Positions 18,773 through 48,949 of a stretch of 64,000 nucleotides of DNA are shown here, piece after piece. The notes below the pieces were generated by a model. It did no database searches, was not told the DNA's origin, and saw only the letters and a list, made by a program, of their open reading frames with translations. Both the position numbers and the translations under genes were made by a program. Within the stretch, counting starts at the first letter, position 1. Each line of letters begins with the position of its first letter. This DNA is from a bacterium (GTDB taxonomy: Bacteria > Elusimicrobiota > Elusimicrobia > UBA1565 > UBA9628), in NCBI GenBank assembly GCA_021822495.1, contig JAKAQO010000005.1, positions 42,548 to 106,547 of the forward strand. The letters are read 5' to 3'.

Positions 18773-18773
18773 C

Positions 18774-23252: not shown

Positions 23253-23257
23253 TTTTT

Positions 23258-32851: not shown

Positions 32852-33214
32852 TTAAGGGAAAACTTGCGCCAAAGCGGCCTTAATATCATCAACCACAAAG
32901 GGTTTGAGCAAAATTCCTGAAGCTCCCATTAACAAGGCCTGCTTTTGGAGCATTTTTTGATCATTGGCGGTCACGATCAAAATTTTTGCTTGGGGATGTT
33001 TGAGCCGCAATTCTTTTAGAACGAAAAGACCGTCCATATCTGGAAGGGAAATATCCAGGGTCATTAAATCCGGGTTGTGCTTGGCGTAATTGGCGATGGC
33101 GTCTTTGCCATTTTCGGCAAAGCCGACCACCGTGTGCCCCAAGCCTTCAAGAGTCGTAGTTAATAGGTCTCGCATCATCGGCAAGTCTTCGACGACGAAA
33201 ATATTTTTTCCCAT
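32852..33214 (-). CDS. CheY-like single-domain response regulator
   Basis: VVEDLP, the phospho-Asp context LMTLDISLPDMDG, T in LIVTAN, and K in LLKPF. Confidence 0.75.
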   Translation of the reverse strand: MGKNIFVVEDLPMMRDLLTTTLEGLGHTVVGFAENGKDAIANYAKHNPDLMTLDISLPDMDGLFVLKELRLKHPQAKILIVTANDQKMLQKQALLMGASGILLKPFVVDDIKAALAQVFP

Positions 33215-33273: not shown

Positions 33274-33651
33274 TCAAGCGTTCAAACGGCGTTCCAGCGC
33301 CTTGACCCGCGCCAGAAGAACTTCTCGTTCAAAGGGCTTGGTCACGTATTCATCCGCGCCCCGGTTGTATCCGCGAATTTGCTCGACAAGCAAAGCCCGG
33401 ACGGTCAGCATGAGAATCGGCAATTGGGCAAAACGAGGATCTGTGCGAATGCGCTCGGTGAGTTGAAGTCCGTCAAGCCTCGGCATATTAAGGTCAAATA
33501 TTCCCATGTCAATTTTATTTTTTTCCAGCTTTTCCCAGCCTTCCTGGCCGTCCACGGCCTCGACCACCTCATAGCCGTCTTCTTCAAGCATCATGCGAAG
33601 GATGTCCCGCACGCTCGCATCGTCATCCGCGATTAGAATTTTTTTAGCCAT
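33274..33651 (-). CDS. Single-domain receiver (CheY-like) response regulator
   Basis: ILIADDD, GIFDLNMPRLDG and VTKPF. Confidence 0.75.
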   Translation of the reverse strand: MAKKILIADDDASVRDILRMMLEEDGYEVVEAVDGQEGWEKLEKNKIDMGIFDLNMPRLDGLQLTERIRTDPRFAQLPILMLTVRALLVEQIRGYNRGADEYVTKPFEREVLLARVKALERRLNA

Positions 33652-33653: not shown

Positions 33654-34346
33654 CTATTTTTTCCTCCGCTGGATGACATTGGCGCTGTCCAACTCCCAGA
33701 CATAACCAATGCCGTGAACGGTCTTGATATAGAAGCCTGATTCCCCCAGCTTTTTACGCAGGGCCTCGATATGTTTGTCAACGGTCGAGGCTTGAACGCT
33801 ATCGGAGTCAGAACGAATCATCTGAAGGAGAGTTCTTCTTTCCAAGGCAACCCCGGGGCGTTCCAGGATAAACGCGAGGAGATCAAACTCCGTTTTCGTC
33901 AAATCGAGGGGTTTTTGATTTAAAACCGCAATTCGCCCCAGGCGGTCGATTTCGATTTTTCCGTCTTGAGATTTCAGCGTTCCAACAGCTTCCGGTTTAA
34001 CGAAGCGTCGAAACACCGCCTCAAGCTTAGCCGACAAAAGCTCTCCCGGCATATCCGGAGAAACCACGTCATCGGCCCCGGCGTTTAAAAGTTCGATGAG
34101 GCGCGCCGCATTTTGAAGACGGGAAGAAACTAAAAGAGAAAGCCGTGTTTCTTTCTCCCGAATAAGGTTTAAGCTTTGGGCATCGGGCAAAATTGATTCG
34201 AAGATAATGACGGTTCCCGGGGGCTTCGGCAAAAGGGCCAAAGCGCTTTTAAAATCCGTGCTTCTTAAAACTTTCCAGCCCCGGAGTAAAAATGCCTCCT
34301 CCCAGTTTTTTCCCAGCAATTCCGGCCCCGCGATTAGGATTTCCAT
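33654..34346 (-). CDS. OmpR-family winged-helix regulator with a degenerate (pseudo-)receiver domain
   Basis: The C-terminal trans_reg_C domain is intact (LTKTEFDLLAFILERPG...HGIGYVWE). In the N-terminal receiver, the acidic pocket is replaced (ILIAGPE instead of DD), the phospho-acceptor position is Glu (IIFESILPD), and the conserved Lys is absent. Confidence 0.55.
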   Translation of the reverse strand: MEILIAGPELLGKNWEEAFLLRGWKVLRSTDFKSALALLPKPPGTVIIFESILPDAQSLNLIREKETRLSLLVSSRLQNAARLIELLNAGADDVVSPDMPGELLSAKLEAVFRRFVKPEAVGTLKSQDGKIEIDRLGRIAVLNQKPLDLTKTEFDLLAFILERPGVALERRTLLQMIRSDSDSVQASTVDKHIEALRKKLGESGFYIKTVHGIGYVWELDSANVIQRRKK

Positions 34347-34524: not shown

Positions 34525-37500
34525 ATGCGAAAAAAGAACATTTGTGAACTCGTCTCCGAAGGCGCCCAACAAAAACGTTCCCAAAAATTAGGAAGATGGG
34601 GACTCTCCCTAACTCTCCTCATTTTTCTCGCCGCCCAAGCAAAAGCACAGGTGCAAAATATTATCTCGACGCCGACCTATCCAGCCAACGGCTCTTATTT
34701 TAATCTGCAAAACCAAACGCCGAACTTTAACTGGTTCGGCCCTTCCACAACGACAATTCAATTAGCGACTTCTCCTGTTTACAATCTTCAGGTCGGCACT
34801 GACCCCACCTTTGCCGCCGGCCTTGTTATTAACGTGCAAATTGCCGCCGTGATCCCAAGCACCGGCCTCCCAAACGCTTATGGCTCCTACCTGTCTGGAA
34901 CTTCTCTAACCAATAACACCACTTATTATTGGCGCGTCTATGCGACAGATAGCTCCGGAGGCGAAAGTATGTCTTGGAGCACATTTAGCTTTGTGACTGA
35001 TTTTGCCCCTGATTCTAACCTTTCAGCATCTTACTCGGGAACGTTGAACTCTTTAGGACAGACTACTCCAGAAAACCAGTTTGTTTCTTTATCCAATGGC
35101 GCGACATCTCAATTATCCGTTTCGGCTTCATTCAGTGGGATTGCGGTTTCAAGCTCCGCCGTACCGTTAACCGGGGATAGCGCTAGTTTTACACAAGGAA
35201 CCAGCGGCTACGGTGTCCTCTATTCGACCAATTCCGGCACGACCTGGGAGGATTACTCCTCATTAGGCATAAATGTTCCAGCAGCTGGCGGTGGAGCTAC
35301 GATCTGGAATTTAGCTGTTTTTAACGGTTTTCTCTACGCTGGTCTAAGCAACGGTTCTATCATTCACACAAATAATGGAACGAGTTGGAATACGGATTAT
35401 ACTGGTTCAAATTATGGAATTGGTGGTTTTACCATATATAAAAACACTCTTTACGCCTCAAACCACGACGGTAGTAATGCGTATATGGTCTCAATTACCA
35501 ACGCTGGAACGGTCAACCGAGCCACTGTATTCAACTCTGGAGCGGGTGTGAGTAAACCAGTCGTTCTTAATAATACTCTTTTCGTCGAAGCTTCTTATAC
35601 TGGAATCCCCGCAGGAGATCCTGGAGCTGGCAACGCTGGAGGCGGAATTTTTGCGTCACAAGACGGCATCCATTGGGTTCAAACGTCCGGTGTTGGCGTA
35701 TGTAGCGACAACTTTGACCAGCTTTTTACATTTAATGGAGAGCTTTATGCAAATGTACAATCAGGGGGTTTTGGATGCAGCGGGTTATTCGTAAGCCCAG
35801 ATGGGGTCAATTGGACAACAATTGACAATCAAAGCGTTCCAGGAACTGTTAATACCGCCACAGTTTTTAATGGAAAACTTTATATTGGAGTAAACAATGG
35901 AGGCTCAAACCCGCTCCTCTATTCATCCACTAATGGGCAAAGCTGGTCAGCGGACAATGGAACACTGACCCAACCTTCCTTGGGGGGCAGTGTCAACGAT
36001 CTTAATGTGGTCAATGGCAAGCTTTACGCCGGTATTTCCACGACCACTGCCAGAATATATGTGACCGAGGATGGAAACAACTGGTTTCCATCAATTTCAG
36101 GCGGCACAGGACAAACAGGAGCAGGAGCGCCCGTTTATTTTAATGGGAATTTTTATGCCGCCGCTGGTCCCGATATCATCACCATCTCGCCCTTTAGCGC
36201 CTCTCTACCTGGTTCTAATGGAGAGCCTTCTGGAACGCTTTCTGCCGTCAGTCCGCAACTTGCCGCTTCAACCACGACAACTACTTGCGGCGGAGTGTCT
36301 CCTTGCAACGCAACCAACCAAGTCATATTTACCGCAAGCGATATGGCAGGAAACACCCTCATGTCTGGTCCTTATGCTATTTTAGTTGACACCGAGGTCG
36401 GGGTCGCCATTTCAACGCCCAGCTATCCGGGAACGCCGACAGTGGGACAGTCTCCTCCGGGGACAGTCCCTTACGTGAACGTTCAGCCCAATTTCGACTG
36501 GATTGGGCCTTCAACCGGGGTCGCTTCGGCTTTGCAGCAGCCCGCCAATTTTTTTCTTGAGGTCTCATCCAACGATCCAACTTTTTCGCCTTCTAATATT
36601 GTGATTAGCACCTCGACTCCGGTCGTCGTTTATTCCACCAATGTCCCCACCGCCAACGGAGCCTACCTTTCGCCTTACGTGCTGGGAAATAACACCACTT
36701 ACTATTGGCGCATCTATATAAAGGATAATCTGGGCGGAACCAGCCCCACATCCCCAACCTATAAATTTATCACGGATTTTGCTCAACCCGCAGTGTCCAC
36801 CTCCAGCTTTCAGAGCATCAATGCCCAAAGCTCGCTCTTACCGGAAAATCAGTTTAACGATCTCGCTTCGGGCGTCACCGCCCAAATTACGGTCCAAGAT
36901 ACTAATTCAGGCCTTGCCGTTTCGACCAGCGCGCTTTCTTTCGCGGGGGATGGACATGATGACCCTCCAATAACCTCGGGGTTTGGAATTATCTATTCCA
37001 CAAATGCCGGGTTCTCATGGATAGTGCAGTCCACCTCCGCTGAAGCCAACAACGGCAGCGCGGTGGGAACGGGAATTCGCTCATTAGCTGTATTTAATGG
37101 GGATATCTACGCTGGGGATTACAGCGGTCATGTCTATTACAGCGCCGACGGCAACACCTGGAGCGCGGGAACTCCCGGGACAAACCCCATTCAATCTTTA
37201 AGCGTCTTCAATGGAATCTTATACGCCGGAGACGGCGGAGGATATATTTACTCAAGTTCAAACGGCAGCACTTGGAGTACAACTAATGGCGGCTCTGCCG
37301 TTGGGGCAGGCATACTCGCAATGACCGTCTTTAACGGACAACTTTATGCCGGAGATAATTTTGCCCGCGTTTTTGTCATGGATGCAAGTGGAAATTGGCA
37401 TAACGTAGACGGCGGAACTGTTGGAACGAGTTCCATTGAATCCTTGGCCGCGTTCAACGGCCAACTCTATGCCGGAGATTATTATGGAAATATCTATGCC

Positions 37501-40500
37501 AGCACAAACGGAAGCTCTTGGAACAGTCTTGGAACTATCGGCAACTCCGGCTCTCTAATTGAGACCATGGCTGTTTTCAATGGAAAGCTTTACGCTGGAG
37601 ACAGTAATGGGTTTATTCATTTTAGCGCTAATGGAGCGTCATGGACCACCAGTAATAATGGAAGCGCTGTTGGATCTGGAATTACCGCTTTAACTGTCTT
37701 TAACGGCCAACTTTACGCTGTAGACGCTCTTGGTTATGTTCATATCAGCGCAGACGGAGTTCATTGGAACTCAATCAAGGTCGCTACGCAAGGAACGGGA
37801 TTAGCTGGATTTAATGGAAACCTCTATGTTGGCGACTATTACGGCGCCGTCTACAGAGCCATCCCTCTTGCCGCGACGCTTTCCGGGTCCGACGGGACAA
37901 CGGCCAGCCAAACCTTGTCGGCAAACAACCTCAATCTCGTTCAATCCACCACAACCGCGACCTGTGGCGGGACTTCGCCTTGCAGCGCGACCGATCAAAT
38001 CATATTTACCGCCTCTGATTTAGCAGGAAATGTCGTCGAAAGCGGGCCGTACGCGATTTTGGTAGACACCACCGTGGCGCCGGCGATTTCGACGCCTTCC
38101 TATCCTTTAAACGGAGCTTACCTCAATTTCAACCCTAATTTTAACTGGACCGGACCCTCAACCAGCATCGTCTCCGGGCTTTTGGCCCCTTCCTATTATC
38201 AACTTGAGGTTTCAAGCAATGATCCCACCTTCGCGACGGTCTTCGTCAATATTTCCACGCCCATTCCGCCGGTCAATACCGGTCTTTCCACCGATAACGG
38301 CGCCTATATTTCTACTTATACGTTTGCCAATCTGACCACTTATTATTGGCGCGTAAGAACTATTGATGGGTTCGGCGGAACCAGCCCCTGGTCCACAACC
38401 TTTAGTTTTACCACTGATTTCTCAAGTCCAACGGCCGTCGGCGGAAGTTTCGCGACGCTCAACAGTCTCGGGGGGCTTGTTCCAGAAAATCAGGTCACGG
38501 TTCTCCAGTCAGGCGTCACTGCTCAGATTAATATTACCGATATCGGTAGCGGGTTCTCCGCCTTTAATTCCTCAAATTATTCCGTCAGGTATTCCACCAA
38601 CGCCGGCCTCTCCTGGATTTCAGAACCCTTTTCCGCGCTCGCTTTTACGGGCTCTATCGGCCAAACCTCGACTCAAACCTTCACGGCCTACGGTCTTAAT
38701 CTCGCCGCCTCAACCAATTCTTATGTCTGCGGGGGAATTTCTCCTTGCGGCGCAACCAACCAAGTTGAATTTACTTTTTCCGATCAGGCCCTCAATTTCA
38801 GCACGGCCGGCCCTTTTGCCGTCATTGTAGATACTCATTCAACCGATGTTTTGGTCTCCACGGCCAATGTCGCGCCTTTGGGAATCCCCCAAAACACCTC
38901 GGTTGCCTTTATCCGCCTGACCTTGAACAGTCTCACTGGAACCGCACCCTGGACCGGGCTCACGGTTCAAAGGCTCGGCAGTGGAACGGACGCGGATGTT
39001 CAAAACGTCGCCATCTACCGTGATAACGCGGGAACCGGAATATTTTCTCCCTCGGATACTCAAATCACCCAAAATGCGGTCTTTTCGGGGGGAATCGTCA
39101 ATTTAACAATGACCAATCCCGAGAGTATTACGACCTCGACCAAGACCTATTTCCTTGTCTATACCGCGGCCCCGGGGGCGCTGGTCGGAGATGGGCTCGC
39201 GGCGGAAATTACATCAACCGCCTCTTTTACCTTCAGCAACGGATACCAGATGAGTTCGGCCCAGACGACGATTTATCCCTTGATCTCCAGCACCGCCACC
39301 GTGGTCGACGGTCCCAATTATCTCTACATCACTCCGGCGAGCCAAGCCCCCAACGATGCCCCGCCCGGAACAGCCAACATCGAGATGCTTTCTTTAAAAG
39401 CCTATACGAATACTGGAACAAGCACTCTTTCCAAAATTGTATTTCATCTCCTAGGAACCGGGGCTTCTAATGACATCAGCTCCATCTCCATCTACAGAGA
39501 CTCAAACGGCACTGGGGTTTATGCCCCCAATGACAGTTTGGTGACCAGCGGCTCGGACTCCTTTTTTAACGGAGTCTCAACCGTCGCTTTCACGACCACC
39601 ATCGCCTCCGAAACCGTGACCACCTCTCCCATTTATTATTTCGTCCTCATCAGCTTGTCTCCGAACGCGCCATTAGGAGATACCTTAGGAATATCTATTT
39701 CCACTACCTCGGACGTCGAGCTGATAGACGTCTTAGATACGACTACTTTTACGACCAGCCCCGCGGCCTCCTCTCTTTTGACCATTGAATACATCAATAC
39801 CTTGAACGTTCAGGGAGTCAACCAAATCCCGTCCTCCCTTTTACAGGGTCAGCAATACGCCATTTTAAAAGCGAGTTTTACGGTTTCGACTGGGGAAACT
39901 TCGTTTAACGGAATCACTATCACGCGCATAGGACTCGGCCATGATTCGGATGTTTCGGCCGTCAGGGTGTGGCAGGACCCCGCTCCACCCGAGACCTTTA
40001 ACCCCGCGACCTTTTTGCAGTTGAGTTCAGGAACCTTTGTGAACGGAAACGCGCAGCTAAACTTCCCGCTTCAAACCTTGTCCGCCGGAACCACCTACGT
40101 CTATTACGTGACCTATAACATTAGTCCCACCGCCCTTCAGGGAGACACCTTGGGCGGAAGAATTACCAGTAATCTCGATATCTCAGACACCAATCCCGGA
40201 ACGACGATTGTCGGCAATTTCTCGATTAATTCGGCCACTTCCCCCGTGGTTCCAACAACCGCAGGGCTTTTTGTCAGCGCTCAAAATGTCGCCCCGAGTG
40301 ATCTCTTGCAAGGCGCGACCAATCAACAAATGCTCAATTTGACGATGGATACCACTCAATACTCAGTTCTTTTGGGAGCTTTGACCTTTAATTCCTTGGG
40401 AACGGCTTCTTCTTCCGATATTTCGCGGGTGGAAGTCTACCAAGACCTCGTGGGAAACGGAATTTTAAATACATCGACCGACCCGCTTTTAAGCGCGGTT

Positions 40501-42159
40501 TCATACCCCTTTATCTCGGGAACCGGCATCATTCCCTTTTCGCCGGGAATCACCATCAGCACTATTCCCATCCGGCTTCTGGTCGCGGTAGACGTTTCAA
40601 CCGGAGCCAATTATCTCAACAATGATTTTGGAATCGGAATTTCAACTCCCGCCAATATCTCAATCAACGCGCCCAATTTTGTCGTTCCCTCAACCACCAC
40701 ATTCCCGGCCGATTCAAGTATTATTCCCATTACGAAAGCCCCGGATGTCATGAGCGTTTTCCCGACTTCCTTGATGGATGTCAACGGCGTCGTTCAAGGC
40801 CAAAACGCGCCGGCGGCGAAACTGAGTTTAGTCACCCAGCACAGTTCCGTGACCTGGACGACGATTTCCGTTCAAAGAAGCGGCACCCTGCCGGATTCGG
40901 GAGTTGATTCCGTCAATATTTATGACGACGTAGATCAAAATGGTGTTCTTGACTCTTCGGATGTCCTAGTGGGAAGCGCGCCCTTTGTTTCCGGAACAGC
41001 CAATATTTCTTTCTCCACCGCGCAACTGGTCAGCCCCGCAGGAGCGGATTATCTCATTACGCTTCAAATTGACCCTAACGCTACTCCGGGAGACACCATT
41101 GGAATTTCCTTGTCCGGCGTGTCCAACTTTACCGTGTTGCCCCCGGACACCGTCTCGGGTTCAAGCCTTCCGTTTAACTCGGCCTTAGGGCCGGTTCTCA
41201 ATATTAAAACTCCCACTCAACCCATCGTCACTTTCCCGAACGGAGATTATTCCAGCTCCTTTGATTCGGTCGGCTTTATCTGGTATTCAACGGTCGCCGT
41301 CGGTTCCATTTCCAGCGCGGCCTATGCCGTGGGAACGACTCCCGGGGGAACCGATATCGCGCCGTATACCGCCATTCCTTTTGCGGCGTCTAGTTTCACC
41401 GCGACCAATCTTCTCCTCTCTAACGGGGCCACTTATTATGTCTCGGTGGAAGCCACCTCTAACTACGGCTTTACCAGCCCGCCGGGAATCAGCCCCGGGT
41501 TTTTGGTTGATTTAATCACCCCAGGGTCGCCGACCAATCTCAGCGCCAATGTCGGCGTAAGCTCGATTTATCTGACCTGGGATCCGGGAACAGTCGGGCC
41601 CTCAGGCGCTTCGGGATATCTTCTCGAATATTCAGACGTCGAACATCCGACCTGGTATAACGCCAAGACCGGAGCGGTCACCGCCCTGGCCGCCGGCCCC
41701 CATGGAACTCTTTCGGCCAATTTCATTCCCTCTTCGCCGTTTTTGTTCAACAATCCGCCGCAAGGAACCCTTCTTTTCCGCGTTAGTTTAGTCAACGGCG
41801 CGGGGGTTCAAAGCGCCCCGTCCAATTCGATCAGGGTTCTCTTTGGAACGCAGTCAAACGCTGGAATATCGAACGTCTCATCCTATCCCAATCCCTTTAA
41901 CTCAAATTCCGGAGTCGCGACTATCGTCTACACCTTGGATACTCCGGGGAATGTCTCCATTCAAATCTACAGCGTCTTTGGGAGTCTCGTCAAAAGCCTC
42001 TCTTATTCTGGTGGAAGCGTGGGGGGGCAAGCCGGCGTCAATACCGTGACCTGGGACGGAACCGACTCAGGCGGACGCAAAGTCTCCAAGGGCATCTACA
42101 TCGCCGTCCTCAAAGCCAATGGTATGAGCGTCCAATACAAAATCGGGGTCAATCACTGA
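34525..42159 (+). CDS. Giant (2544 aa) secreted repeat-rich surface protein with Asp-box/BNR-like beta-propeller repeats, FN3/Ig-like modules and a T9SS-type C-terminal sorting domain
   Basis: A signal peptide is present. There are three super-repeats of about 560 aa, each with TTYYWR(V/I), S-x-(D/N)-G-x-(S/T)-W propeller repeats and the Cys motif CGG.SPC.AT.Q..FT.SD. Five repeats of about 125 aa follow (..IYRD.NGTG..). An FN3 domain is next (IYLTWDPG), and the protein ends in a C-terminal domain of type PNPFN..ATI.Y.L....V.I.IY...G.LV..L..G..WDG.D..G..V..GIY. Confidence 0.75.
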   Translation: MRKKNICELVSEGAQQKRSQKLGRWGLSLTLLIFLAAQAKAQVQNIISTPTYPANGSYFNLQNQTPNFNWFGPSTTTIQLATSPVYNLQVGTDPTFAAGLVINVQIAAVIPSTGLPNAYGSYLSGTSLTNNTTYYWRVYATDSSGGESMSWSTFSFVTDFAPDSNLSASYSGTLNSLGQTTPENQFVSLSNGATSQLSVSASFSGIAVSSSAVPLTGDSASFTQGTSGYGVLYSTNSGTTWEDYSSLGINVPAAGGGATIWNLAVFNGFLYAGLSNGSIIHTNNGTSWNTDYTGSNYGIGGFTIYKNTLYASNHDGSNAYMVSITNAGTVNRATVFNSGAGVSKPVVLNNTLFVEASYTGIPAGDPGAGNAGGGIFASQDGIHWVQTSGVGVCSDNFDQLFTFNGELYANVQSGGFGCSGLFVSPDGVNWTTIDNQSVPGTVNTATVFNGKLYIGVNNGGSNPLLYSSTNGQSWSADNGTLTQPSLGGSVNDLNVVNGKLYAGISTTTARIYVTEDGNNWFPSISGGTGQTGAGAPVYFNGNFYAAAGPDIITISPFSASLPGSNGEPSGTLSAVSPQLAASTTTTTCGGVSPCNATNQVIFTASDMAGNTLMSGPYAILVDTEVGVAISTPSYPGTPTVGQSPPGTVPYVNVQPNFDWIGPSTGVASALQQPANFFLEVSSNDPTFSPSNIVISTSTPVVVYSTNVPTANGAYLSPYVLGNNTTYYWRIYIKDNLGGTSPTSPTYKFITDFAQPAVSTSSFQSINAQSSLLPENQFNDLASGVTAQITVQDTNSGLAVSTSALSFAGDGHDDPPITSGFGIIYSTNAGFSWIVQSTSAEANNGSAVGTGIRSLAVFNGDIYAGDYSGHVYYSADGNTWSAGTPGTNPIQSLSVFNGILYAGDGGGYIYSSSNGSTWSTTNGGSAVGAGILAMTVFNGQLYAGDNFARVFVMDASGNWHNVDGGTVGTSSIESLAAFNGQLYAGDYYGNIYASTNGSSWNSLGTIGNSGSLIETMAVFNGKLYAGDSNGFIHFSANGASWTTSNNGSAVGSGITALTVFNGQLYAVDALGYVHISADGVHWNSIKVATQGTGLAGFNGNLYVGDYYGAVYRAIPLAATLSGSDGTTASQTLSANNLNLVQSTTTATCGGTSPCSATDQIIFTASDLAGNVVESGPYAILVDTTVAPAISTPSYPLNGAYLNFNPNFNWTGPSTSIVSGLLAPSYYQLEVSSNDPTFATVFVNISTPIPPVNTGLSTDNGAYISTYTFANLTTYYWRVRTIDGFGGTSPWSTTFSFTTDFSSPTAVGGSFATLNSLGGLVPENQVTVLQSGVTAQINITDIGSGFSAFNSSNYSVRYSTNAGLSWISEPFSALAFTGSIGQTSTQTFTAYGLNLAASTNSYVCGGISPCGATNQVEFTFSDQALNFSTAGPFAVIVDTHSTDVLVSTANVAPLGIPQNTSVAFIRLTLNSLTGTAPWTGLTVQRLGSGTDADVQNVAIYRDNAGTGIFSPSDTQITQNAVFSGGIVNLTMTNPESITTSTKTYFLVYTAAPGALVGDGLAAEITSTASFTFSNGYQMSSAQTTIYPLISSTATVVDGPNYLYITPASQAPNDAPPGTANIEMLSLKAYTNTGTSTLSKIVFHLLGTGASNDISSISIYRDSNGTGVYAPNDSLVTSGSDSFFNGVSTVAFTTTIASETVTTSPIYYFVLISLSPNAPLGDTLGISISTTSDVELIDVLDTTTFTTSPAASSLLTIEYINTLNVQGVNQIPSSLLQGQQYAILKASFTVSTGETSFNGITITRIGLGHDSDVSAVRVWQDPAPPETFNPATFLQLSSGTFVNGNAQLNFPLQTLSAGTTYVYYVTYNISPTALQGDTLGGRITSNLDISDTNPGTTIVGNFSINSATSPVVPTTAGLFVSAQNVAPSDLLQGATNQQMLNLTMDTTQYSVLLGALTFNSLGTASSSDISRVEVYQDLVGNGILNTSTDPLLSAVSYPFISGTGIIPFSPGITISTIPIRLLVAVDVSTGANYLNNDFGIGISTPANISINAPNFVVPSTTTFPADSSIIPITKAPDVMSVFPTSLMDVNGVVQGQNAPAAKLSLVTQHSSVTWTTISVQRSGTLPDSGVDSVNIYDDVDQNGVLDSSDVLVGSAPFVSGTANISFSTAQLVSPAGADYLITLQIDPNATPGDTIGISLSGVSNFTVLPPDTVSGSSLPFNSALGPVLNIKTPTQPIVTFPNGDYSSSFDSVGFIWYSTVAVGSISSAAYAVGTTPGGTDIAPYTAIPFAASSFTATNLLLSNGATYYVSVEATSNYGFTSPPGISPGFLVDLITPGSPTNLSANVGVSSIYLTWDPGTVGPSGASGYLLEYSDVEHPTWYNAKTGAVTALAAGPHGTLSANFIPSSPFLFNNPPQGTLLFRVSLVNGAGVQSAPSNSIRVLFGTQSNAGISNVSSYPNPFNSNSGVATIVYTLDTPGNVSIQIYSVFGSLVKSLSYSGGSVGGQAGVNTVTWDGTDSGGRKVSKGIYIAVLKANGMSVQYKIGVNH

Positions 42160-42827
42160 TATGAAAAAAAGGGGACAGTCCCCTTTTTGGGGGAAATCTC
42201 GAAAAAGGGGACTGTCCCCTTTTTTGGCCGCCCGATGCGGCGCTCAAGCCCCATTTCCTCTCTTATCTCTTGCTCACGCTCACCACCATACACTATTTCT
42301 TTATAAAAATAAGCCCTCTCCTGGGCAGAATTTCCAAGAGATAAATAACCTGGGCTTTCCTCCAGAAAAGGGGACTGTCCCCTTTTTCCTGTATAGAATC
42401 CATAGCTGGACCAAGAGTAATCTTCCGGTTTTTTCACGATGGCTGCGCGAACGGGGTTTAACTCAATATAACGGCCACAGAAAAGCAGGCTTCTCTCCGT
42501 TGGCAACAAGACGCTTTTATAACGCCCCTGCCAGAGATGACCCACCAGAGAATTTTTTCCTCGGAAATAATCGGAATATCCCTGCAAAAGTCTTTGCATC
42601 GCCTTACCCAGGTCTTCCGCTTTTTGAACTTGAGCTAAGAAATGAACATGATTTGGCATTAGGACATAATGATACAGGTGAAAAGGATTTTTTTTCTTCG
42701 CCCATTTCAGAAGAGCTAAGAATTTTTCATAATCTAAATCTTCCTGAAATATCTTCTGTCGGTTATTCCCACGAGCCATCAGATGATAAAACATTCCCTC
42801 AAGCACATTTCTCCTCTGTCTTGGCAT
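42153..42827 (-). CDS. IS200/IS605-family Y1 tyrosine transposase of the REP-associated type (RAYT)
   Basis: The HuH motif is MPNHVHFL and the catalytic Tyr context is GHLWQGRYKS. One REP (42370-42382) is inserted in frame, giving GKRGQSPF. The ORF has no stop until it has read through the downstream REP doublet (..KKGTVPFFEISPKKGTVPFF). Confidence 0.7.
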   Translation of the reverse strand: MPRQRRNVLEGMFYHLMARGNNRQKIFQEDLDYEKFLALLKWAKKKNPFHLYHYVLMPNHVHFLAQVQKAEDLGKAMQRLLQGYSDYFRGKNSLVGHLWQGRYKSVLLPTERSLLFCGRYIELNPVRAAIVKKPEDYSWSSYGFYTGKRGQSPFLEESPGYLSLGNSAQERAYFYKEIVYGGEREQEIREEMGLERRIGRPKKGTVPFFEISPKKGTVPFFSYQ

Positions 42828-42960
42828 ATCACCCCTCCTTTCCGCCTAGATTCTCTGCTATATTTCATACGGCAGAAACACAAAAAAAGTTCCCTCAAAA
42901 AAAGGGACAGTCCCTTTCTCGGTTAAAATTCCTAAAAAAAGGGACTGTCCCTTTTTTCTT
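42161..42960. mobile_element. RAYT-REPIN unit: RAYT gene flanked by inverted REP doublets (42165-42235 and 42897-42960)
   Basis: Downstream doublet cores are at 42171-42183 and 42207-42219. Upstream doublet cores are at 42904-42914 and 42941-42951. This is the classical genomic context of REP-associated tyrosine transposases. Confidence 0.6.
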
Positions 42961-44485
42961 ATTTCTACTTCTCTCTTCCATATCGGCTTCCGCAGCCAGC
43001 AGCTTCTATGCCGGTTCTCCTAACGAAATTTTCCAGTTCGGAGCTGACGCCAGGGCCATGGGAATGGGAAACGCTTATACCGCAATCGCTGGCGGCGCGT
43101 CTTCTCTTTACTACAACCCCGCAGGACTCGGCCTTCTCAATGGTCCCGATATCAGCGCCATGCAGGCCAGTCTCATTGGCGGCGCGGCTTATGAAAATTT
43201 ATCCTATGCCCAGAATTTTTCAAAGATGCCTGGAGCTTGGGGAGTTGAAGCCCTCAACATGGGCGTTGGAGGGGCCGAGCAAAGGGACTCTCAAAATAAT
43301 TTGACCGGAAGTTTTGGCTTTCAAGAAACCGGATATGGAGCGGGATTTGGATTGCGAAATGTCGTCATTCCAGGTTTATCATTGGGAGGATCTTTCCAAG
43401 GGCTCAGCCGAAGCTTAGGTGGAAGTTCTTCCGACATGCTCTATGGAGCCAATCTCGGCGCCCAATACGGCCCTTTTTTTGATAATATGGTGACCGCCGG
43501 ACTCGTTCTCCAAAACGGCTTTAACGGAGCGCAAAACACCTTTGACCGGTTGCCTACGGTTCTACGCGCGGGCCTGGCCGTCACTCCCATCGACAATCTT
43601 CTTATCTCCGCGGACTATGGAAACGACGGAGATTATGGAATAGGCGCGGAATATAGAATATGGATGTTCGCCCTGCGAGCCGGATATATGCCGGAAGGCC
43701 TCACCTTTGGCGCTGGAATCTATTATAAATCAATGGAAGCCGATGTCGCGATGGTCAATGATCCGATTTTTGGAATGGGGGAGCGGTTTTCGATCAACTA
43801 CCGATTCGCGGGGAAGAAAAAAGAAAAGCCTCTCCAGACTTATACCAACAGTTATCTTGACGCCGCGAAAAAAGAACTTAATATTCGCAATTACCTCAGC
43901 GCGCAACTGGCTCTTGAAGAAGCGATGGGGATTGATCCAACCCAGATTCCCCAAATATGGAAGGAAAAACTCAAACTTCTTCAAGCGTTCAATCAATATT
44001 TAGATCTCAAGAATCGACCGGATGAGGTTAAGACTCTTCTCGCTAATGATCCGGCGGCGATACTCGCCCAAAAATCGATTTTTTCTTATTTAGAGGGGCG
44101 TGACGGCGATGCGATGATTTGGGCCTCCGTGGCCGCTGGAACGGCTCATAAATCCATGCCCTATATTGACTTTATCAAGACAATGGCTTATCTTACGAGT
44201 ATGAAGGTTTCGGAAGGAGATTTGTTGCCGCCGGCCGAATATGTTTCCAAAAAAATGGAGACTGCTCTTCAGGACATTTATCAAAAACGCTTCGCGAATT
44301 CAGTCAGAGATTGCCAACAGGCCATTGTGGTCAACCCGAAAGAATCTTCCGCCTGGACTCGTCTTGGCAGCGCTTATTTTGCCTGGGGACACAAACAAGA
44401 AGCCAAAAAGGCTTATCAAAAAGCCCTGGAGCTCGATCCCAAGGATGAAAATCTTAAGAAATTCATGGAGATCTATATCAAATGA
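42956..44485 (+). CDS. Outer-membrane beta-barrel protein with a PorV/PorQ-like N-terminal motif and C-terminal TPR; 5' start unresolved
   Basis: The signal-peptide-like segment KKGTVPFFLFLLLSSISASAASS is partly encoded by a REP. It is followed by FGADARAMGMGNAYTAIAGGASSLYYNPAGLG and Gly-rich beta-strands, with TPR at the C-terminus. No ATG/GTG/TTG start exists between the REP doublet and this segment. The frame is open back to 42161, antisense to the RAYT gene. Confidence 0.45.
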   Translation, partial: FLFLLLSSISASAASSFYAGSPNEIFQFGADARAMGMGNAYTAIAGGASSLYYNPAGLGLLNGPDISAMQASLIGGAAYENLSYAQNFSKMPGAWGVEALNMGVGGAEQRDSQNNLTGSFGFQETGYGAGFGLRNVVIPGLSLGGSFQGLSRSLGGSSSDMLYGANLGAQYGPFFDNMVTAGLVLQNGFNGAQNTFDRLPTVLRAGLAVTPIDNLLISADYGNDGDYGIGAEYRIWMFALRAGYMPEGLTFGAGIYYKSMEADVAMVNDPIFGMGERFSINYRFAGKKKEKPLQTYTNSYLDAAKKELNIRNYLSAQLALEEAMGIDPTQIPQIWKEKLKLLQAFNQYLDLKNRPDEVKTLLANDPAAILAQKSIFSYLEGRDGDAMIWASVAAGTAHKSMPYIDFIKTMAYLTSMKVSEGDLLPPAEYVSKKMETALQDIYQKRFANSVRDCQQAIVVNPKESSAWTRLGSAYFAWGHKQEAKKAYQKALELDPKDENLKKFMEIYIK

Positions 44486-44561: not shown

Positions 44562-47075
44562 ATGGACATATTAATGATTATTTTTATCCCAAGTCTTTTT
44601 CTTGTGTTGGGAGCCCTGATGTTTATCGTCAGCCGGGTCATGGAGTTTTCACAATCCAACCGTTATTTCGCAAAACAACGAGGAAACAGTCTTATGTTTA
44701 CACGTTTCATGACTCAAATCGCCATAGCGAAAAGCCAACTGGGAAAAAGGGCCCAGGAACTGGAAGCCCTCTCCATGCGTCTTCAAATGAACAATGAAGA
44801 GCTCGCGAGGCTCAACAATCTCAAGATGAAATTTCTTTCCATGGCGGTTCATGATATTCGAAACCCCTTGACCGCCATTACCGGCTATAGCGATATCCTG
44901 TCTCGCAACAAAAATATTGGTCCGAAAGAACAAGTCCTCTCGAAAATGATCTTGACCGCGACGCGGCAAATCAACCACCTCATGGGCGACTTGACCGATC
45001 TGGCCGTCATCGAAGCGGGAAAATTCAAGATGGAAATGGCGCCCTTTGATCTGGCCGGACTCATCCAAGAAGTCGGCGCGACGCTGGCTCCTGGAGCCTC
45101 TAACAAAGGCGTCATTCTTTCTGTTCTGGAACCTCCGTCGGGAATCATCATCACCGCCGACCGCTACCGCATTTGGCGCGTTTTGACGAATCTTTTAGGC
45201 AACGCCGTCAAATTTACTCCCTCGGGCGGCCGCGTTGAACTGAGAGCCGAAGTCGCGGCGGGAATGGCCATGATTTCCGTTCAAGATAATGGTCCCGGAA
45301 TTCATCCCACCGAACGCCGAAAAATTTTTGAAAAATTCTACCAGTCAAAGCACATCAAGGATGAAAAGGCCCGCAAGGGCGGCTGGGGGCTGGGACTCGC
45401 CATCGCCCAAGAAATTGTTCAAGCTCACGGAGGGGAAATTGGGGTTGACAGCCGCGGTCTCGGGCATGGATCCACTTTTTGGGTTCGCATTCCTCTTAAA
45501 GCTCGGCGCCCCATTCGCTCTAGCCCCATGCGCCTTTCTCTTGCTTTAATCGGGTTTTTAGCTCTTTCTTTTATTCCGAAAAAAACTGGGGCTCAAACTG
45601 TTCCCTTTCTTGAAAAATCCAAGTTCGAGAAATCCCTAGAAACCAAGGTGGACGGGGTTCTCCTCAATATCCTGGGGCCCAATCGGGCCAAGGTCATCAT
45701 CAACGCGACCTTAAACTTTACCAAGACGGAAAGTTTTCAAACCGAAGGCGCAAGCGTCACAACCACAAAAACCTCGGGGCTACCTTATCTCTGGCAAGAG
45801 CCCAGCAAAACGGCGCAGCCCGAAGAACTTCTTCCTGGAGTGCCGCTTGATTCCGGAGGCCCTGCTCTTCCCATGCCACCGCCGTCAATTAAGGGATATA
45901 AAAAAGAAGATTCCTTTCCCGCCGAATTTATCAAGAGGTTGGATGTCACTCTCATTTTGGACAATTCCGTTAAGGGAAATCGCAGCGCCGAAATCGGCAA
46001 AATTACATCCGACCTTCTCAATCTCAATCCCAAACGGGGGGATTCTTTAACCGTGGTCCACACCGAGTTTTCTCCTATTTGGAAAACCGTCTGGTATTCT
46101 CCGGCCACTGCGGGCATGCTTCTTAAATATATTTTGACCGGGTTTCTCTTTTTCATGGCCTTGATCGTCATCGCTATCGGATTCATAAAAATCGCCAACG
46201 CCATGCGCATGATGGCTAACGCCCAAGCTCAGCAAATTTCCATGGAAATGAAGGGACTCGATGGCGAGGGGGGAAGCGGACCAGGAGGGCTTTTAGGACA
46301 CAATACGCTCATGATTGGGGATCAAAAATCAGGAGAAAACGTCCCTGAGAATAAAAATGAACCCGTCATGTTCGACGTAGGGATGGATCAGGTAGAAACC
46401 CTGGCTCAAATGCTTCTCCCCGAACCGGCCAATAACATTGCCATTGTCGCGTCCCGCCTAACCCCGGATGTTTCGAAAAGACTCATTGAGGCCCTTCCCC
46501 CGGAACTGGCGACGCAAGTCATCAGCCAACTCGCTCGTCCGCGCTTTATCGATCCGGAAATTATCGTCAACTTAAAGGAAGAGCTGGAACGGCGTCTTTC
46601 CGGCGCGGTGGGAGGCGTTCATTATCTCTCGGAACTCATGTCGGCCGCCAGCCAAAAGAGGCGCCATGAGATGCTCGAAGCCGTTCGCGCGCAAAACCCG
46701 AACCTCGCGGAAGAACTTAGAAAAAGAGTCTTTTTCATCGAGGATCTTTCAAAGCTGAGCCAACAGGAATGGTCATACCTCTTATCCTTGGTCACCTATC
46801 AAGAATGGAGTGCGGCCCTTCATGAGGGACCCCAAGTGGTCGTCGAAGCCATTAAGCAAAATCTATCGGAAAAAGCCTGGGGGGTTCTTAGCGAAATGAT
46901 TGAAACGGCTTCTCCCAGCATAGAACAAGCGGAAATAGCGCAAGACAAAATCGGTCAAAGCGTCTCGGAACTCATCAAGGAACAGAGAATCAAGACCATC
47001 GCACCACAATTGGGACTTCAGGTTCATGAATCTCCAATTGAGGAAGAAAAAGGCGCAGAAAGCAACAAAAAGTAA
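44562..47075 (+). CDS. Multidomain fusion of a membrane histidine kinase (HisKA + HATPase_c), a FliF/SctJ-like periplasmic ring-building segment with a TM anchor, and a FliG (rotor/switch protein) middle + C-terminal domain
   Basis: GGAGG lies 6 nt upstream of the ATG at 44562. The kinase motifs are the H-box AVHDIRNPLTAITGYSDIL, the N-box LLGNAVKFT, and the G-boxes DNGPGI and GWGLGLAIA. There is no stop after the kinase. A signal/TM-like segment MRLSLALIGFLALSF (ATG 45528) is followed by about 200 periplasmic residues, then the TM segment LLKYILTGFLFFMALIVIAIGF. The FliG-like region is LPPELATQVISQLA...EELERRLSG.VGG...NPNLAEELRKRVFFIEDLSKLS..E..YLLS.V....AL......V.EAIKQNLSEKAW.VL.E.....SIEQAEIAQ. 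Alternatively these are two genes, with the second starting at 45528. Confidence 0.6.
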   Translation: MDILMIIFIPSLFLVLGALMFIVSRVMEFSQSNRYFAKQRGNSLMFTRFMTQIAIAKSQLGKRAQELEALSMRLQMNNEELARLNNLKMKFLSMAVHDIRNPLTAITGYSDILSRNKNIGPKEQVLSKMILTATRQINHLMGDLTDLAVIEAGKFKMEMAPFDLAGLIQEVGATLAPGASNKGVILSVLEPPSGIIITADRYRIWRVLTNLLGNAVKFTPSGGRVELRAEVAAGMAMISVQDNGPGIHPTERRKIFEKFYQSKHIKDEKARKGGWGLGLAIAQEIVQAHGGEIGVDSRGLGHGSTFWVRIPLKARRPIRSSPMRLSLALIGFLALSFIPKKTGAQTVPFLEKSKFEKSLETKVDGVLLNILGPNRAKVIINATLNFTKTESFQTEGASVTTTKTSGLPYLWQEPSKTAQPEELLPGVPLDSGGPALPMPPPSIKGYKKEDSFPAEFIKRLDVTLILDNSVKGNRSAEIGKITSDLLNLNPKRGDSLTVVHTEFSPIWKTVWYSPATAGMLLKYILTGFLFFMALIVIAIGFIKIANAMRMMANAQAQQISMEMKGLDGEGGSGPGGLLGHNTLMIGDQKSGENVPENKNEPVMFDVGMDQVETLAQMLLPEPANNIAIVASRLTPDVSKRLIEALPPELATQVISQLARPRFIDPEIIVNLKEELERRLSGAVGGVHYLSELMSAASQKRRHEMLEAVRAQNPNLAEELRKRVFFIEDLSKLSQQEWSYLLSLVTYQEWSAALHEGPQVVVEAIKQNLSEKAWGVLSEMIETASPSIEQAEIAQDKIGQSVSELIKEQRIKTIAPQLGLQVHESPIEEEKGAESNKK

Positions 47076-47228: not shown

Positions 47229-48173
47229 ATGAGTGAAAGTCCAAAAGGTTCTATCTTTTCCTCATTAAGGGCATTAGAGGAAGTTCTGGAAGAAACTCCC
47301 ACTGCAATACCTACTCCGCAAAACGTTTCTCCCGCTCCTGTTCAAGCCGCACCACCGCCACCCACTCCCACGCCCATGAGTTCAACGCCGCCCGTTGATT
47401 CTTCAAGCGAAGCTCTCAAATCCGTGGAAGCAAAGATTGAAAAAATCGATCAAAAAATTCAGGAATTAGGAAATCTCCCAATCTCGCCAAATCTTGATCG
47501 CATTGAAGCTCTTGAGAAAAACCTACAACAGATGCAGGAGCGGGCCATCCAGGCAGAAGTTGCGCTCAGAGAACGAGAAAAATCCCAAGAAGCCGCAAGA
47601 CGTGAGACAGAATCTCTTCTTCAAAATCTAGCATCCCAAAGACGACTCGAAGAATCCGACAGGCAAATGAAGGAGAACCTGTCCTACTGCCGGCACCGCA
47701 TCGAGGAATTAGAAGAGCGGCAAGCCTCTCTCAAAATTTCAGATACGCAACAGTCGGAGCATGAGTTTAAATCGCTCTTAAAAAATTTTATGGAACAAAT
47801 CGACCTTAAAACAGCCCCGATTTTAACGTCTCTCCTTGAACTCAAGAAAGAGAATCAAAACCGCGAAAAAGAGAGTCTCAATATGGAAAAAAGGATAGGC
47901 CATCTTGAAACCAAAACCGCTAATAAAAGCCAAGTTGACGCTCTGCGCGAAGACTTCCTCCATTTAAAACAGTCCGTGGAAAAAATTAATTTGGAAACAT
48001 CGGAAAAGCTCGATAAAATAACCGCGGCATTAAGCCTATTGTCGCTTAAACTCCACAAAGATAAGGCAACAGAAGAATTAATCATTCTCGATAAAGAGTT
48101 TCAAAAAATACACTCTATTCTCAACGCCAATATTTCCAACTCTCCCAAACAAACAGGAATAGCCCCTGATTGA
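47229..48173 (+). CDS. Pro-rich N-terminus plus long coiled-coil protein (function unknown; placed in the motor-like cluster)
   Basis: A PAPVQAAPPPPTPTP segment is followed by heptad-rich sequence with abundant E/K/L/Q. The start at 47229 is the second in-frame Met; the ORF tracker starts at 47202. Confidence 0.4.
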   Translation: MSESPKGSIFSSLRALEEVLEETPTAIPTPQNVSPAPVQAAPPPPTPTPMSSTPPVDSSSEALKSVEAKIEKIDQKIQELGNLPISPNLDRIEALEKNLQQMQERAIQAEVALREREKSQEAARRETESLLQNLASQRRLEESDRQMKENLSYCRHRIEELEERQASLKISDTQQSEHEFKSLLKNFMEQIDLKTAPILTSLLELKKENQNREKESLNMEKRIGHLETKTANKSQVDALREDFLHLKQSVEKINLETSEKLDKITAALSLLSLKLHKDKATEELIILDKEFQKIHSILNANISNSPKQTGIAPD

Positions 48174-48211: not shown

Positions 48212-48949
48212 ATGGAACTGACATCGATTATCGGCCTTGGAGCAATTTTAACTCTAACCGCAATTGGGCTCGCCACGGGAGGGCTCCCGGCGGTTTTCAT
48301 CAACTGGCACGGAATCGGCATCGTCCTGGGCGGCACTTTTTGCGCCTTGATGATTAACACTCCCCTGGATATCTTGCTCAGAACTGGAGCGGCTATAACA
48401 GATTTAGTTTCAGCCGATCCTTACGTCGATCGCATCGCCCTTGTGGACGCGATCATGGCCTTGGCTCAAGAGGTTCAATCCCGAGGAATCAGCGCCTTTA
48501 ACAACGTCAACAAAACGGTTGCCGCTGGGTATCTCGCTTATGCCGCTCAAATTGCCGTCGAATACAATAATCCTGAAACCCTCCGGCAGGTCCTGGAAAA
48601 TGAGATTATTCAAAACTCCGATTTACAAAATGAAGCGGTCAACGTTTTTAGAACCGCAGGAATTTTGGCGCCGATGTTTGGGCTTTTAGGGACCTTGATC
48701 GGAATTGTCGAAGTTCTGCGCCAAATCGCCAACCCCGCTCAAGTAGGCTCCGCCATGGCAGTCGCCATTACTACCGCTTTTTATGGTATTGCGACGGCTA
48801 ACGTTTTTTGCGTGCCAATAGCTGGGAAATTGAGAATCAGGTATTGGAGAGAAACGCAGGCTAAAACCATGGTTTTAGAAGGCGTCTATGAAATTCTTCA
48901 ACGAACGCCCACCGTCATCATCTCCAGGAAACTAAAATCTTATTTATGA
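48212..48949 (+). CDS. motA: MotA/PomA-type proton-channel stator subunit
   Basis: Four TM helices with a large cytoplasmic loop. The TM3-TM4 core is APMFGLLGTLIGIVEVL...AMAVAITTAFYGIATAN. I chose the ATG at 48212; the ORF tracker's TTG is at 48170. Confidence 0.65.
   Translation: MELTSIIGLGAILTLTAIGLATGGLPAVFINWHGIGIVLGGTFCALMINTPLDILLRTGAAITDLVSADPYVDRIALVDAIMALAQEVQSRGISAFNNVNKTVAAGYLAYAAQIAVEYNNPETLRQVLENEIIQNSDLQNEAVNVFRTAGILAPMFGLLGTLIGIVEVLRQIANPAQVGSAMAVAITTAFYGIATANVFCVPIAGKLRIRYWRETQAKTMVLEGVYEILQRTPTVIISRKLKSYL

Follow-up and report, generated by a model that had tools for sequence, protein, structure and literature searches.

Here we describe a 64,000-nucleotide stretch of DNA from an uncultivated member of the phylum Elusimicrobiota (contig JAKAQO010000005.1 of assembly GCA_021822495.1; hereafter the window), which carries on its plus strand a giant gene whose product ends in a C-terminal sorting-type domain (CTD), a gene for a PorV-like outer-membrane barrel and a set of homologues of flagellar rotor and stator genes. 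The giant gene is an open reading frame (ORF) with an ATG start at 34525–42159 that encodes 2544 amino acids, as a preliminary description of this DNA had stated, and this is borne out both by translation and by the presence of the same protein, residue for residue, on contigs of two metagenome-assembled genomes (MAGs) at NCBI (GCA_027319695.1 and GCA_027401815.1) and of two ENA assemblies. Since the identical protein occurs in four independent assemblies, the ORF is not a one-off assembly product, and its reading frame is unbroken over 7.6 kb. Tandem Repeats Finder detected no DNA-level tandem array in the gene because its repeats exist at the protein level only; the stretches of repeated DNA are 27–86 nt long and 62–93% identical, and since they are short and too diverged, collapse of the repeats during assembly is unlikely. 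The product begins with a putative Sec-type signal peptide (aa 1–41, ...LLIFLAAQAKA/QV; 34525–34647), for which a basic n-region, a hydrophobic core and an AKA motif were read by eye from the translation. The mature protein has a mass of 258 kDa and is acidic, with an isoelectric point of 4.05 and 134 Asp and Glu residues against 44 Lys and Arg. GC skew is −0.16 to −0.19 at 38001–42000, the 3′ half of the gene, compared with about −0.05 elsewhere in the window, which probably reflects the biased composition of the repeat region.

The internal repeats were mapped by self-BLAST of 120-aa segments, since self-BLAST of the whole protein gave the identity match only. Two full super-repeat units, unit 1 (aa 42–622, 581 aa; 34648–36390) and unit 2 (aa 623–1185, 563 aa; 36391–38079), are followed by a truncated unit 3 of 256 aa (aa 1186–1441; 38080–38847). 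In unit 1, an FN3-like Ig domain with TTYYWRV at its end is followed by another Ig-like segment, by an Asp-box-like propeller at about aa 245–555 and by a cysteine box (CGGVSPC...YAILVDT), with Pfam matches to Ig_Rha78A_N and DUF6242. For the protein as a whole, Ig_Rha78A_N scores 46.5 bits, above cut-off, and DUF6242 (PF19755), the propeller match, 67.3 bits (cut-off 29); the propeller also matches KIB1-4 and WD40-type models. BNR (PF02012) is not among the Pfam matches of the giant protein. Unit 2 has the same module order, with seven clear blades at about aa 846–1110 that recur every 41 aa (123 nt), and is 35–53% identical to unit 1 (E down to 2e-31), while unit 3 consists of the FN3-like Ig domain (TTYYWRV), the second Ig-like segment and the cysteine box, and is without the propeller. 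From its sequence, a full unit is read as an FN3-like Ig domain, an Ig domain, a predicted seven-bladed Asp-box-like propeller and a cysteine box. The three super-repeats of about 560 aa that had been proposed therefore reduce to two full units and a short, propeller-less third, and the reported threefold period of 1.65–1.7 kb agrees with the first cysteine-box spacing (1677 nt) but not with the second, which is only 765 nt. The motifs themselves were recovered as described, TTYYWR[VI] at aa 132, 724 and 1271 and the cysteine box, CGGxSPC...(A/V)(I/V)(L/I)VDT, at aa 588, 1147 and 1402, together with 10 [ST]x[DNE][GA]x[STNH]W motifs and 12 blade motifs of the FNGxLYA type. Compared with the canonical Asp box (S-x-D-x-G-x-T-W), the propeller boxes (S-x-D/N-G-x-S/T-W) are shorter by one residue.

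Close relatives of the giant protein (P0002, 77% identical, and P0003) have a full propeller of about 293 aa at the unit-3 site, and relative to P0002 these residues are missing from the window protein between residues 1346 and 1374. A propeller-less unit is also present at a related locus (L011) and in more distant relatives, and is therefore a natural variant. Compared with P0002, unit 2 of the window protein, its most divergent region, is only 50.7% identical and unit 1 78%; the corresponding values are 75% for the 158-aa repeats, 91% for the Ig/FN3 pair and 82% for the CTD, all described below. The divergence of unit 2 suggests diversifying change in one propeller unit.

Downstream of the units are five tandem repeats (aa 1442–2232; 38848–41220), delimited by the self-BLAST segments. 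The number of copies is as first reported, but each is 155–162 aa long (about 158 aa) and not about 125 aa. Searches of PDB sequences with the whole giant protein returned nothing, and with a profile of the 158-aa repeat nothing significant, so that structure prediction was needed. AlphaFold2 modelling from an alignment of 42 copies, taken from the window protein and its homologues, gave a beta-sandwich with a predicted local distance difference test score (pLDDT) of 97.3. The PDB structures ranked best by Foldseek are carbohydrate-binding-type domains from the N-terminus of GH33 sialidases of Bacteroidales (E 1.6e-5 to 7e-4; query template-modelling score, TMq, 0.57–0.67), followed by cohesins and Ig-like domains of Gram-positive adhesins; Pfam matches to GEVED and BNR_assoc_N are weak. 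The repeats are followed by one Ig_Rha78A_N-like and one FN3-like domain (aa 2233–2449; 41221–41871), the fn3 match scoring 21.7 bits against a cut-off of 25, and our own IgA profile hidden Markov model (HMM) matching at aa 2264. No catalytic family matched the giant protein in Pfam, NCBIfam or PDB sequence searches. Copy number varies among relatives, from 2.5 to 5 propellers and from 5 to 8 repeats. Since the passenger modules are of the binding type, the term adhesin-like is reasonable, and the earlier view of a secreted adhesin-like protein is consistent with the Sec-type signal, the repeat-built passenger and the FlgD-Ig or type-A-like C-terminal domain.

This C-terminal domain comprises the last 95 residues (aa 2450–2544, YPNPFNS...WDGTD..GRKVSKGIY...KIGVNH-COOH; 41872–42159, including the stop codon), and hence occupies the extreme C-terminus of a protein with a signal-like N-terminus. 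It passes the Pfam FlgD_ig model (PF13860) with 27.8 bits against a cut-off of 27 (aa 2467–2531), matches the C-terminal part of the PorU model with 35.4 bits and scores 23.0 bits against NCBIfam TIGR04183, which is exactly at the cut-off of 23 and hence weak (E 5.6e-5, aa 2454–2540). It fails Pfam Por_Secre_tail (PF18962), with 12.5 bits against a cut-off of 27. The Por-secretion/FlgD-Ig-like tail that had been assigned to this protein therefore stands as a FlgD_ig domain that just reaches TIGR04183, but not as a Por_Secre_tail domain. An exhaustive search of 1.84 billion representatives identified 41,228 proteins with homologous domains at E≤1e-3 and 548 at E≤1e-10, the top matches of which fall into two classes. 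In the first, large proteins contain 8–15 internal tandem copies of the fold (P0156–P0162 and others). In the second, a single copy of about 40–60% identity ends no more than 16 residues from the C-terminus of proteins that span entries of <600 aa up to 7176 aa (531–6998 aa in ten that were sampled); all named members of this class are from Elusimicrobiota, and the names already given to members by NCBI include 'T9SS type A sorting domain-containing protein' and 'FlgD immunoglobulin-like domain containing protein', T9SS denoting the type IX secretion system. An alignment of 35 CTDs defines a tight subfamily, YPNPFDSR...WDGtD..GrKVSKG.Y...K(I/V)GV(I/K)H-COOH, and its strict terminal position and conserved last strand are as expected for a sorting or anchoring signal. 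Apparent internal CTD matches inside giant proteins, obtained with phmmer, disappeared with the subfamily HMM and were rejected as spurious. At one related locus (L006), a small separate ORF at 22448–22717 (89 aa as called) represents a second copy of the CTD; it lies between the barrel gene and the giant gene for P0004, the product of which ends in a CTD of its own.

In the window, the giant gene and the barrel gene are separated by a gene on the minus strand (42153–42827) that encodes a REP-associated tyrosine transposase (RAYT, Y1_Tnp; PF01797, 53.7 bits), REP denoting repetitive extragenic palindromes. This gene is called in all four assemblies and is not part of the system. The 774-aa plus-strand ORF at 42161–44485 does not represent a single gene: over its first 222 codons it lies opposite the RAYT gene and overlaps REP elements. 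The earlier statement that the next plus-strand gene encodes a PorV/PorQ-like barrel thus holds for a PorV-like part from about 42.9–43.06 kb, but the ORF is not the gene and the match to the PorV/PorQ family (NF033709; 71.5 bits, E 8.7e-20) is below the cut-off of 90; scores against the PorV equivalog (14.3 bits, cut-off 250) and PorQ (33.3 bits, cut-off 220) are lower still. We assign the barrel gene to 42821–44485, with an uncertain start. HMM matches and an AlphaFold2 model from a 37-sequence alignment (pLDDT 89.8) define an N-terminal plug, a PorV/FadL-like barrel of 14 strands (aa 77–295) and a C-terminal tetratricopeptide repeat (TPR) domain (aa 304–520) that is predicted to be periplasmic. 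The closest solved structure is PorV, the fold being that of the 14-stranded FadL-type barrels with an N-terminal plug. Outside Elusimicrobia, relatives of the barrel are proteins of 290–310 aa annotated as 'PorV/PorQ family' or 'UPF0164' in MAGs labelled Bacillota, Spirochaetia, Krumholzibacteriota, Cloacimonadota and others. Six clusters (P0081, P0085, P0086, P0127, P0136 and P0155; 410–429 aa), from non-Bacteroidota MAGs of which one is labelled Spirochaetia, combine the barrel with a C-terminal FlgD_ig domain in one polypeptide, which provides independent evidence that the barrel family and the Ig-like domain work together.

The start of the barrel gene is affected by REP elements. When one mismatch is allowed, the window contains 60 strand-matches to the REP palindrome GGGACAGTCCC, where 0.67 would be expected. 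The palindrome occupies about 30 sites that are mostly intergenic and often paired (for example 34387, 42172, 42208, 42904, 42941, 44493, 44530, 47091 and 48957); its translation yields the peptide KKGTVPFF, the recurrence of which makes ORFs too long where genes begin. One REP pair, at 42904–42951, has taken the place of the barrel gene's original 5′ end and of part of its signal peptide. There is no in-frame ATG, GTG or TTG between TTG 42821 and ATG 43058; of the canonical starts, only the former retains the signal peptide, with a 58-aa leader, and gene callers use the latter. A homologue of the barrel that is 88% identical (P0036) has a normal signal peptide. Because the REP pair stands in place of the 5′ end, it is uncertain where this copy of the gene starts and perhaps how well it is expressed. 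At another locus (L032), too, the barrel gene is directly preceded by a RAYT gene.

Downstream of the barrel gene, the plus strand encodes an 837-aa fusion protein (44562–47075) in which, according to Pfam and PDB profile matches, a histidine kinase (HisKA, HATPase_c) is followed by a transmembrane (TM) segment, a FliF/YscJ-like periplasmic segment, a second TM segment and the middle and C-terminal domains of FliG. Homologues begin at MDILMII, which places the start at 44562, downstream of a REP pair; the annotated start at 44445 is probably wrong. FliG_M (40.6 bits, cut-off 25) and FliG_C (52.6 bits, cut-off 23.3) are both passed, FliG_N scores 23.4 bits, under its cut-off of 25, and a profile of the FliF-FliG family matches solved FliG structures at E 4e-35. 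The family comprises 23 clusters, and all its named members are Elusimicrobia or Elusimicrobiota. Three further plus-strand genes encode a conserved coiled-coil protein of 314 aa with a Pro-rich N-terminus and no family match (47229–48173), homologues of which occupy the same position in related loci, a MotA-type stator A subunit of 245 aa (48212–48949; PF01618, 79.5 bits), whose best PDB matches are flagellar MotA and PomA over the full length (E 9e-27), and a MotB-type stator B subunit of 230 aa (48981–49673; PF13677, 38.0 bits; PF00691, 80.1 bits) with a plug, the TM Asp (YGDFMSYL) and an OmpA-like peptidoglycan-binding domain. No flagellar genes other than these FliF-FliG, MotA and MotB homologues were found in the window. 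PADLOC detected neither ZorA nor any other Zor protein, the similarity of MotB to ZorB being only generic, and in the absence of ZorA the MotA/MotB pair is not a Zorya anti-phage system. On the minus strand, divergent from the giant gene, Pfam matches identify an OmpR-type regulator (Trans_reg_C; 33654–34346) and two single-domain CheY-like receivers (33274–33651 and 32852–33214). The stator genes are followed, with a 4-nt overlap, by plus-strand genes for a HEAT-repeat protein and a CHASE2-domain adenylate/guanylate cyclase (49687–52718), which we rejected as core members since they are kept in the closest relatives only; they are probably a lineage-specific signalling add-on.

We compared the window proteins with all ORFs of 57 loci. 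A genome scan with the FliF-FliG profile identified 47 loci, all titled Elusimicrobia, Elusimicrobiota, Elusimicrobiales or Elusimicrobiaceae save seven titled 'bacterium', and every homologue of the giant protein with a source name is from Elusimicrobia. On contigs of sufficient length, the genes for the barrel-TPR protein, the histidine kinase, MotA, FliF-FliG and MotB occur together, the few exceptions being L009/L026 and L049, in which no MotA/MotB was seen. The module has CheY-like receivers in its vicinity, and equivalents of the OmpR-type and CheY-like regulator genes flank the cluster in related loci. Two layouts can be distinguished. In type A, represented by the window and L005, L006, L010–L015, L017 and L044, the kinase is fused and the order is giant CTD protein, barrel-TPR, kinase-FliF-FliG, the coiled-coil protein without family match, MotA and MotB. 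In all ten distinct type A loci with upstream DNA, the barrel gene is directly preceded, on its own strand, by a giant ORF ending in the subfamily CTD, and the stop and start codons of the two genes often overlap. Neither a giant protein of only 40% identity (P0004) nor a different passenger, such as the 6437-aa protein with NHL and LamG domains at L010, breaks this adjacency. In type B, found in about 35 loci, the kinase is a separate 313-aa protein, as it is in most species, and the order is barrel-TPR, kinase, MotA, FliF-FliG, the protein without family match and MotB. Since the barrel-TPR gene is core to both layouts, the outer-membrane barrel is linked to the motor genes independently of the adhesin, and the sequence comparison indicates that the adhesin is a clade-specific addition to an Elusimicrobia-wide module of which the PorV-like barrel is a core part. 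Conserved genes that follow MotB in some type B loci (isoleucyl-tRNA synthetase, signal peptidase II and a TPR protein) represent housekeeping synteny and not the module. At L007, two genes of the FGE-sulfatase family, which is the fold family of PorK/GldK, were observed at 5163–9901, just upstream of a giant homologue (P0006) after which the contig ends; this pair was not seen in other loci. We found no description of this gene cluster in the literature.

The reading that we favour, although we hold it with confidence evenly divided, is that the giant protein is a large Sec-exported surface adhesin that is anchored through its CTD to the cognate PorV-like barrel and is possibly coupled to an orphan motor of the flagellar type. 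The passenger would supply binding modules, namely two full units and one propeller-less unit, five beta-sandwiches resembling carbohydrate-binding modules (CBMs) and an Ig/FN3 pair, and the last 95 residues, which are FlgD-Ig and T9SS-type-A-like, would act as a signal for sorting to, and anchoring at, the outer membrane. By analogy with PorV and PorQ, which bind type A CTDs (PMC8754138), and with SprF and SprB, the CTD may dock on the adjacent 14-stranded barrel and so keep the adhesin on the cell surface. The periplasmic TPR domain of the barrel might in turn bridge to the inner-membrane kinase-FliF-FliG protein and the MotA/MotB stator, such that proton-motive force or mechanical load could pass between the adhesin and the cytoplasm, to serve a gliding-like drive, energised secretion or surface sensing. 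It is gene order that suggests this coupling of adhesin to motor. Export drive, movement of the adhesin and load sensing through the kinase are each compatible with the sequence.

Several observations weigh against this reading. The likeness to FliF is weak (E 0.002–0.005 with the PDB profile; PF08345, 25.2 bits). In the torque helix of the window protein the equivalents of R281, D288, D289 and R297 are K, E, M and S, so that two of the four charges are kept, and they are not conserved in the consensus of the FliF-FliG family; such poor conservation argues against a canonical rotor-stator interface. In the roughly 35 type B loci there is no adjacent giant CTD gene, which indicates that the module needs no such cargo and that the adhesin may be a mere neighbour. 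The occurrence of 8–15 internal copies of the CTD-like fold in other proteins means that the fold by itself is no proof of a sorting role. Scans of the window and related loci identified no translocon for a folded passenger of 258 kDa. Finally, the RAYT/REP insertion parts the giant and barrel genes in this genome, where the barrel may be poorly expressed or inactive.

Some of these observations would also be explained if the adhesin and its barrel were a self-contained display pair, and the kinase-FliF-FliG protein, MotA/MotB and the CheY-like proteins formed a separate two-component device that senses surfaces or load and acts through the OmpR-type regulator, neither moving nor secreting the adhesin. 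The fusion of FliG to a histidine kinase without an obvious periplasmic sensor domain fits such a device, as do the accompanying CheY-like receivers and OmpR-type regulator, the lack of conservation of the torque-helix charges and the presence of the module without an adhesin in about 35 loci. Against it stand the strict adjacency in each of the ten type A loci that could be assessed, where stop and start codons often overlap, and the place of the barrel-TPR gene in the core of the motor module in both layouts. We consider a separate sensing device somewhat unlikely. The most far-reaching version of the favoured reading is an undescribed envelope-spanning machine of Elusimicrobiota built from flagellar parts, in which MotA/MotB and a minimal FliF-FliG rotor, with a histidine kinase fused to it or encoded beside it, would be connected through the TPR-bearing PorV-like barrel to giant CTD adhesins, proton-motive force being used for export of the adhesin, its movement or both; in this complete form we regard the proposal as tentative and, on balance, unlikely.

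An alternative of a different kind is that the giant protein is ordinary cargo of a full T9SS encoded elsewhere in the genome and so far undescribed, to be exported through SprA/Sov, handed over to PorV, cleaved at the CTD by the PorU sortase and anchored to lipopolysaccharide (LPS). The TIGR04183 score of 23.0 against 23, the match of the CTD region to the PorU CTD, the structural proximity of the barrel to PorV and the NCBI names of Elusimicrobiota relatives ('T9SS type A sorting domain-containing protein' and 'PorV/PorQ family protein') all point in this direction. We searched for T9SS core families with Pfam among window ORFs of at least 150 aa that lacked a precomputed Pfam annotation, a few short ones excepted, and in the called genes of related loci, and found none. 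The host phylum, Elusimicrobiota, to which all named homologues and loci belong (as Elusimicrobia or Elusimicrobiota), is outside the Bacteroidota and the Fibrobacteres–Chlorobi–Bacteroidetes (FCB) group, to which the T9SS is confined according to reviews, and full-text literature searches retrieved no paper that links Elusimicrobia to the T9SS, nor a relevant one on gliding or adhesins in this group. Moreover, one generic PorV serves all type A cargo in Bacteroidota (PMC12618676), whereas the barrel described here is linked to its cargo and bears a TPR domain. Since PF18962 fails, TIGR04183 is reached only at threshold, the PorV/PorQ cut-off is missed and the phylum is outside the known range, the protein should not be filed as a T9SS substrate, although it would function in the manner of a CTD-bearing surface adhesin of Bacteroidota, and we judge this explanation quite improbable.

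That the giant protein is instead a secreted glycan-degrading enzyme or enzyme scaffold, with sialidase- or GH74-like BNR propellers and CBMs, is very improbable: the propellers do contain Asp-box-like motifs and the 158-aa repeat resembles the GH33 N-terminal domain, with weak matches to BNR_assoc_N, but no glycoside hydrolase or other catalytic family was matched in the Pfam, NCBIfam and PDB sequence searches, the propeller is recognised by DUF6242 and KIB1-4 or WD40-type models and not by BNR PF02012, and the numbers of propellers and repeats are free to vary among relatives, as they are in adhesins. A mis-assembled or decaying repeat gene, as the truncated third unit and the mobile REP/RAYT DNA at its flank might suggest, is practically negligible as an explanation given the identical 2544-aa ORF in four assemblies, the short and diverged DNA repeats, the intact frame over 7.6 kb and the recurrence of the propeller-less unit in L011 and other relatives.

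Taken alone, the giant protein would be one more large repetitive surface protein, relatives of which are already labelled by HMMs as type A sorting-domain proteins. Its context is of wider interest, since a type-A-like CTD and a PorV-like barrel are genetically paired in a phylum without a described T9SS, which bears on the age and modularity of CTD-barrel recognition. In Elusimicrobia loci that represent dozens of species, mostly reported to be flagella-less, the barrel is moreover a constant part of a gene set that also comprises a FliG homologue and a stator of the flagellar type. According to a preprint on magnetotactic Elusimicrobiota (10.1101/2022.07.08.499144), only few genomes of the phylum encode full flagella, and most free-living members have motAB and fliG homologues whose role was termed 'enigmatic' and tentatively related to gliding or twitching. 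If the proposed envelope machine exists, it would explain these orphan genes of non-flagellated free-living Elusimicrobiota and would represent flagellum-independent surface motility, a functional analogue of the T9SS and gliding machinery of Bacteroidota that evolved separately. That the motor genes are linked to the barrel, and in a single clade also to a giant adhesin, leads to the concrete and testable hypothesis of a new device that serves motility, secretion or the sensing of surfaces.

Elsewhere in the window, two adjacent plus-strand ORFs of 531 and 527 aa without a Pfam match (4102–7302) are located between a gene for a TPR-Ser/Thr protein kinase (1657–4086) upstream and two DUF4143 AAA ATPase genes (7444–9828) downstream. 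A surface-glycan biosynthesis cluster at 12814–24295 encodes a Polysacc_synt-family membrane protein, two group-1 glycosyltransferases, C-methyltransferases, a PMT_2-type glycosyltransferase, a phosphomannomutase-type enzyme and a nucleotidyl transferase, and its products might modify surface proteins or LPS.

Amongst known systems, the rotor and stator of flagella share with the cluster the FliG_M and FliG_C domains, a MotA that is nearest to MotA/PomA, a MotB with plug, TM Asp and OmpA domain and, as in FliF, a TM-periplasmic-TM segment, which in the fusion protein precedes FliG. The cluster differs in that its FliF-like part is only about 220 aa and weak, FliG_N is below cut-off, the torque charges are not conserved, the FliF-FliG protein is fused to, or encoded after, a histidine kinase, and other flagellar genes are absent. 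The UPF0164 and FadL-like proteins (Treponema family PF03687) include relatives of the barrel, which are annotated as UPF0164 and matched by the family HMM, but they are regarded as transporters, with no known link to CTD cargo or motor genes. Some FadL orthologues of Treponema pallidum have C-terminal helical or TPR extensions. The N-terminal domain of GH33 sialidases (BNR_assoc_N; BTSA, NanH) has the same beta-sandwich fold as the 158-aa repeat, to which it is only 9–14% identical; the repeat occurs in 5–8 tandem copies, and the giant protein has no sialidase catalytic domain.

The preliminary description likened the giant protein to cargo such as SprB-type gliding adhesins. SprB of Flavobacterium johnsoniae, which has a type B CTD, is paired with a PorP/SprF barrel (PMC9143113), and adhesins with type B CTDs are in general bound by cognate PorP-like barrels encoded nearby (PMC9143113, PMC12618676). 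The arrangement is similar in that a giant repetitive adhesin gene is followed by its own barrel gene and in that both are tied to a proton-driven motor of the 5:2 type, GldLM in one case and, as known from its genes, MotAB in the other. However, SprB has SprB repeats and a type B CTD and SprF is a PorP-family and not a PorV/FadL-like barrel, whereas the CTD described here is type-A/FlgD-like, its barrel is PorV/FadL-like, all named homologues are from Elusimicrobiota, and no type B CTD, SprB repeat or PorP_SprF domain was among the Pfam and NCBIfam matches of the giant protein or its neighbour. Since these features are missing, the giant protein is not SprB-like in the family sense, and the comparison was not upheld. 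The motors differ likewise, GldLM acting with a GldKN ring and MotAB being accompanied by a FliG homologue.

Another parallel is with the type A cargo of the T9SS in Bacteroidota, such as RgpB, and with PorU and PorZ, the retained CTDs of which are held by PorV and PorQ. Shared with these are the Sec signal, the multi-domain passenger, a terminal Ig-like beta-sandwich of about 90 aa that reaches the TIGR04183 cut-off and matches the PorU CTD, and a partner with the 14-stranded FadL fold nearest to PorV. The host is an elusimicrobiote, where SprA, PorKLMN and PorU are not known, PF18962 fails, the CTD belongs to a FlgD_ig-like branch with its own ...KIGVIH-COOH end, and the barrel is encoded beside its cargo and fused to a TPR domain. 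As judged from sequence and gene order, what is new here is the apparent pairing of a type-A-like CTD with a dedicated, TPR-bearing barrel of the PorV fold within a motor-like module that is made of flagellar homologues and not of GldLM/PorLM.

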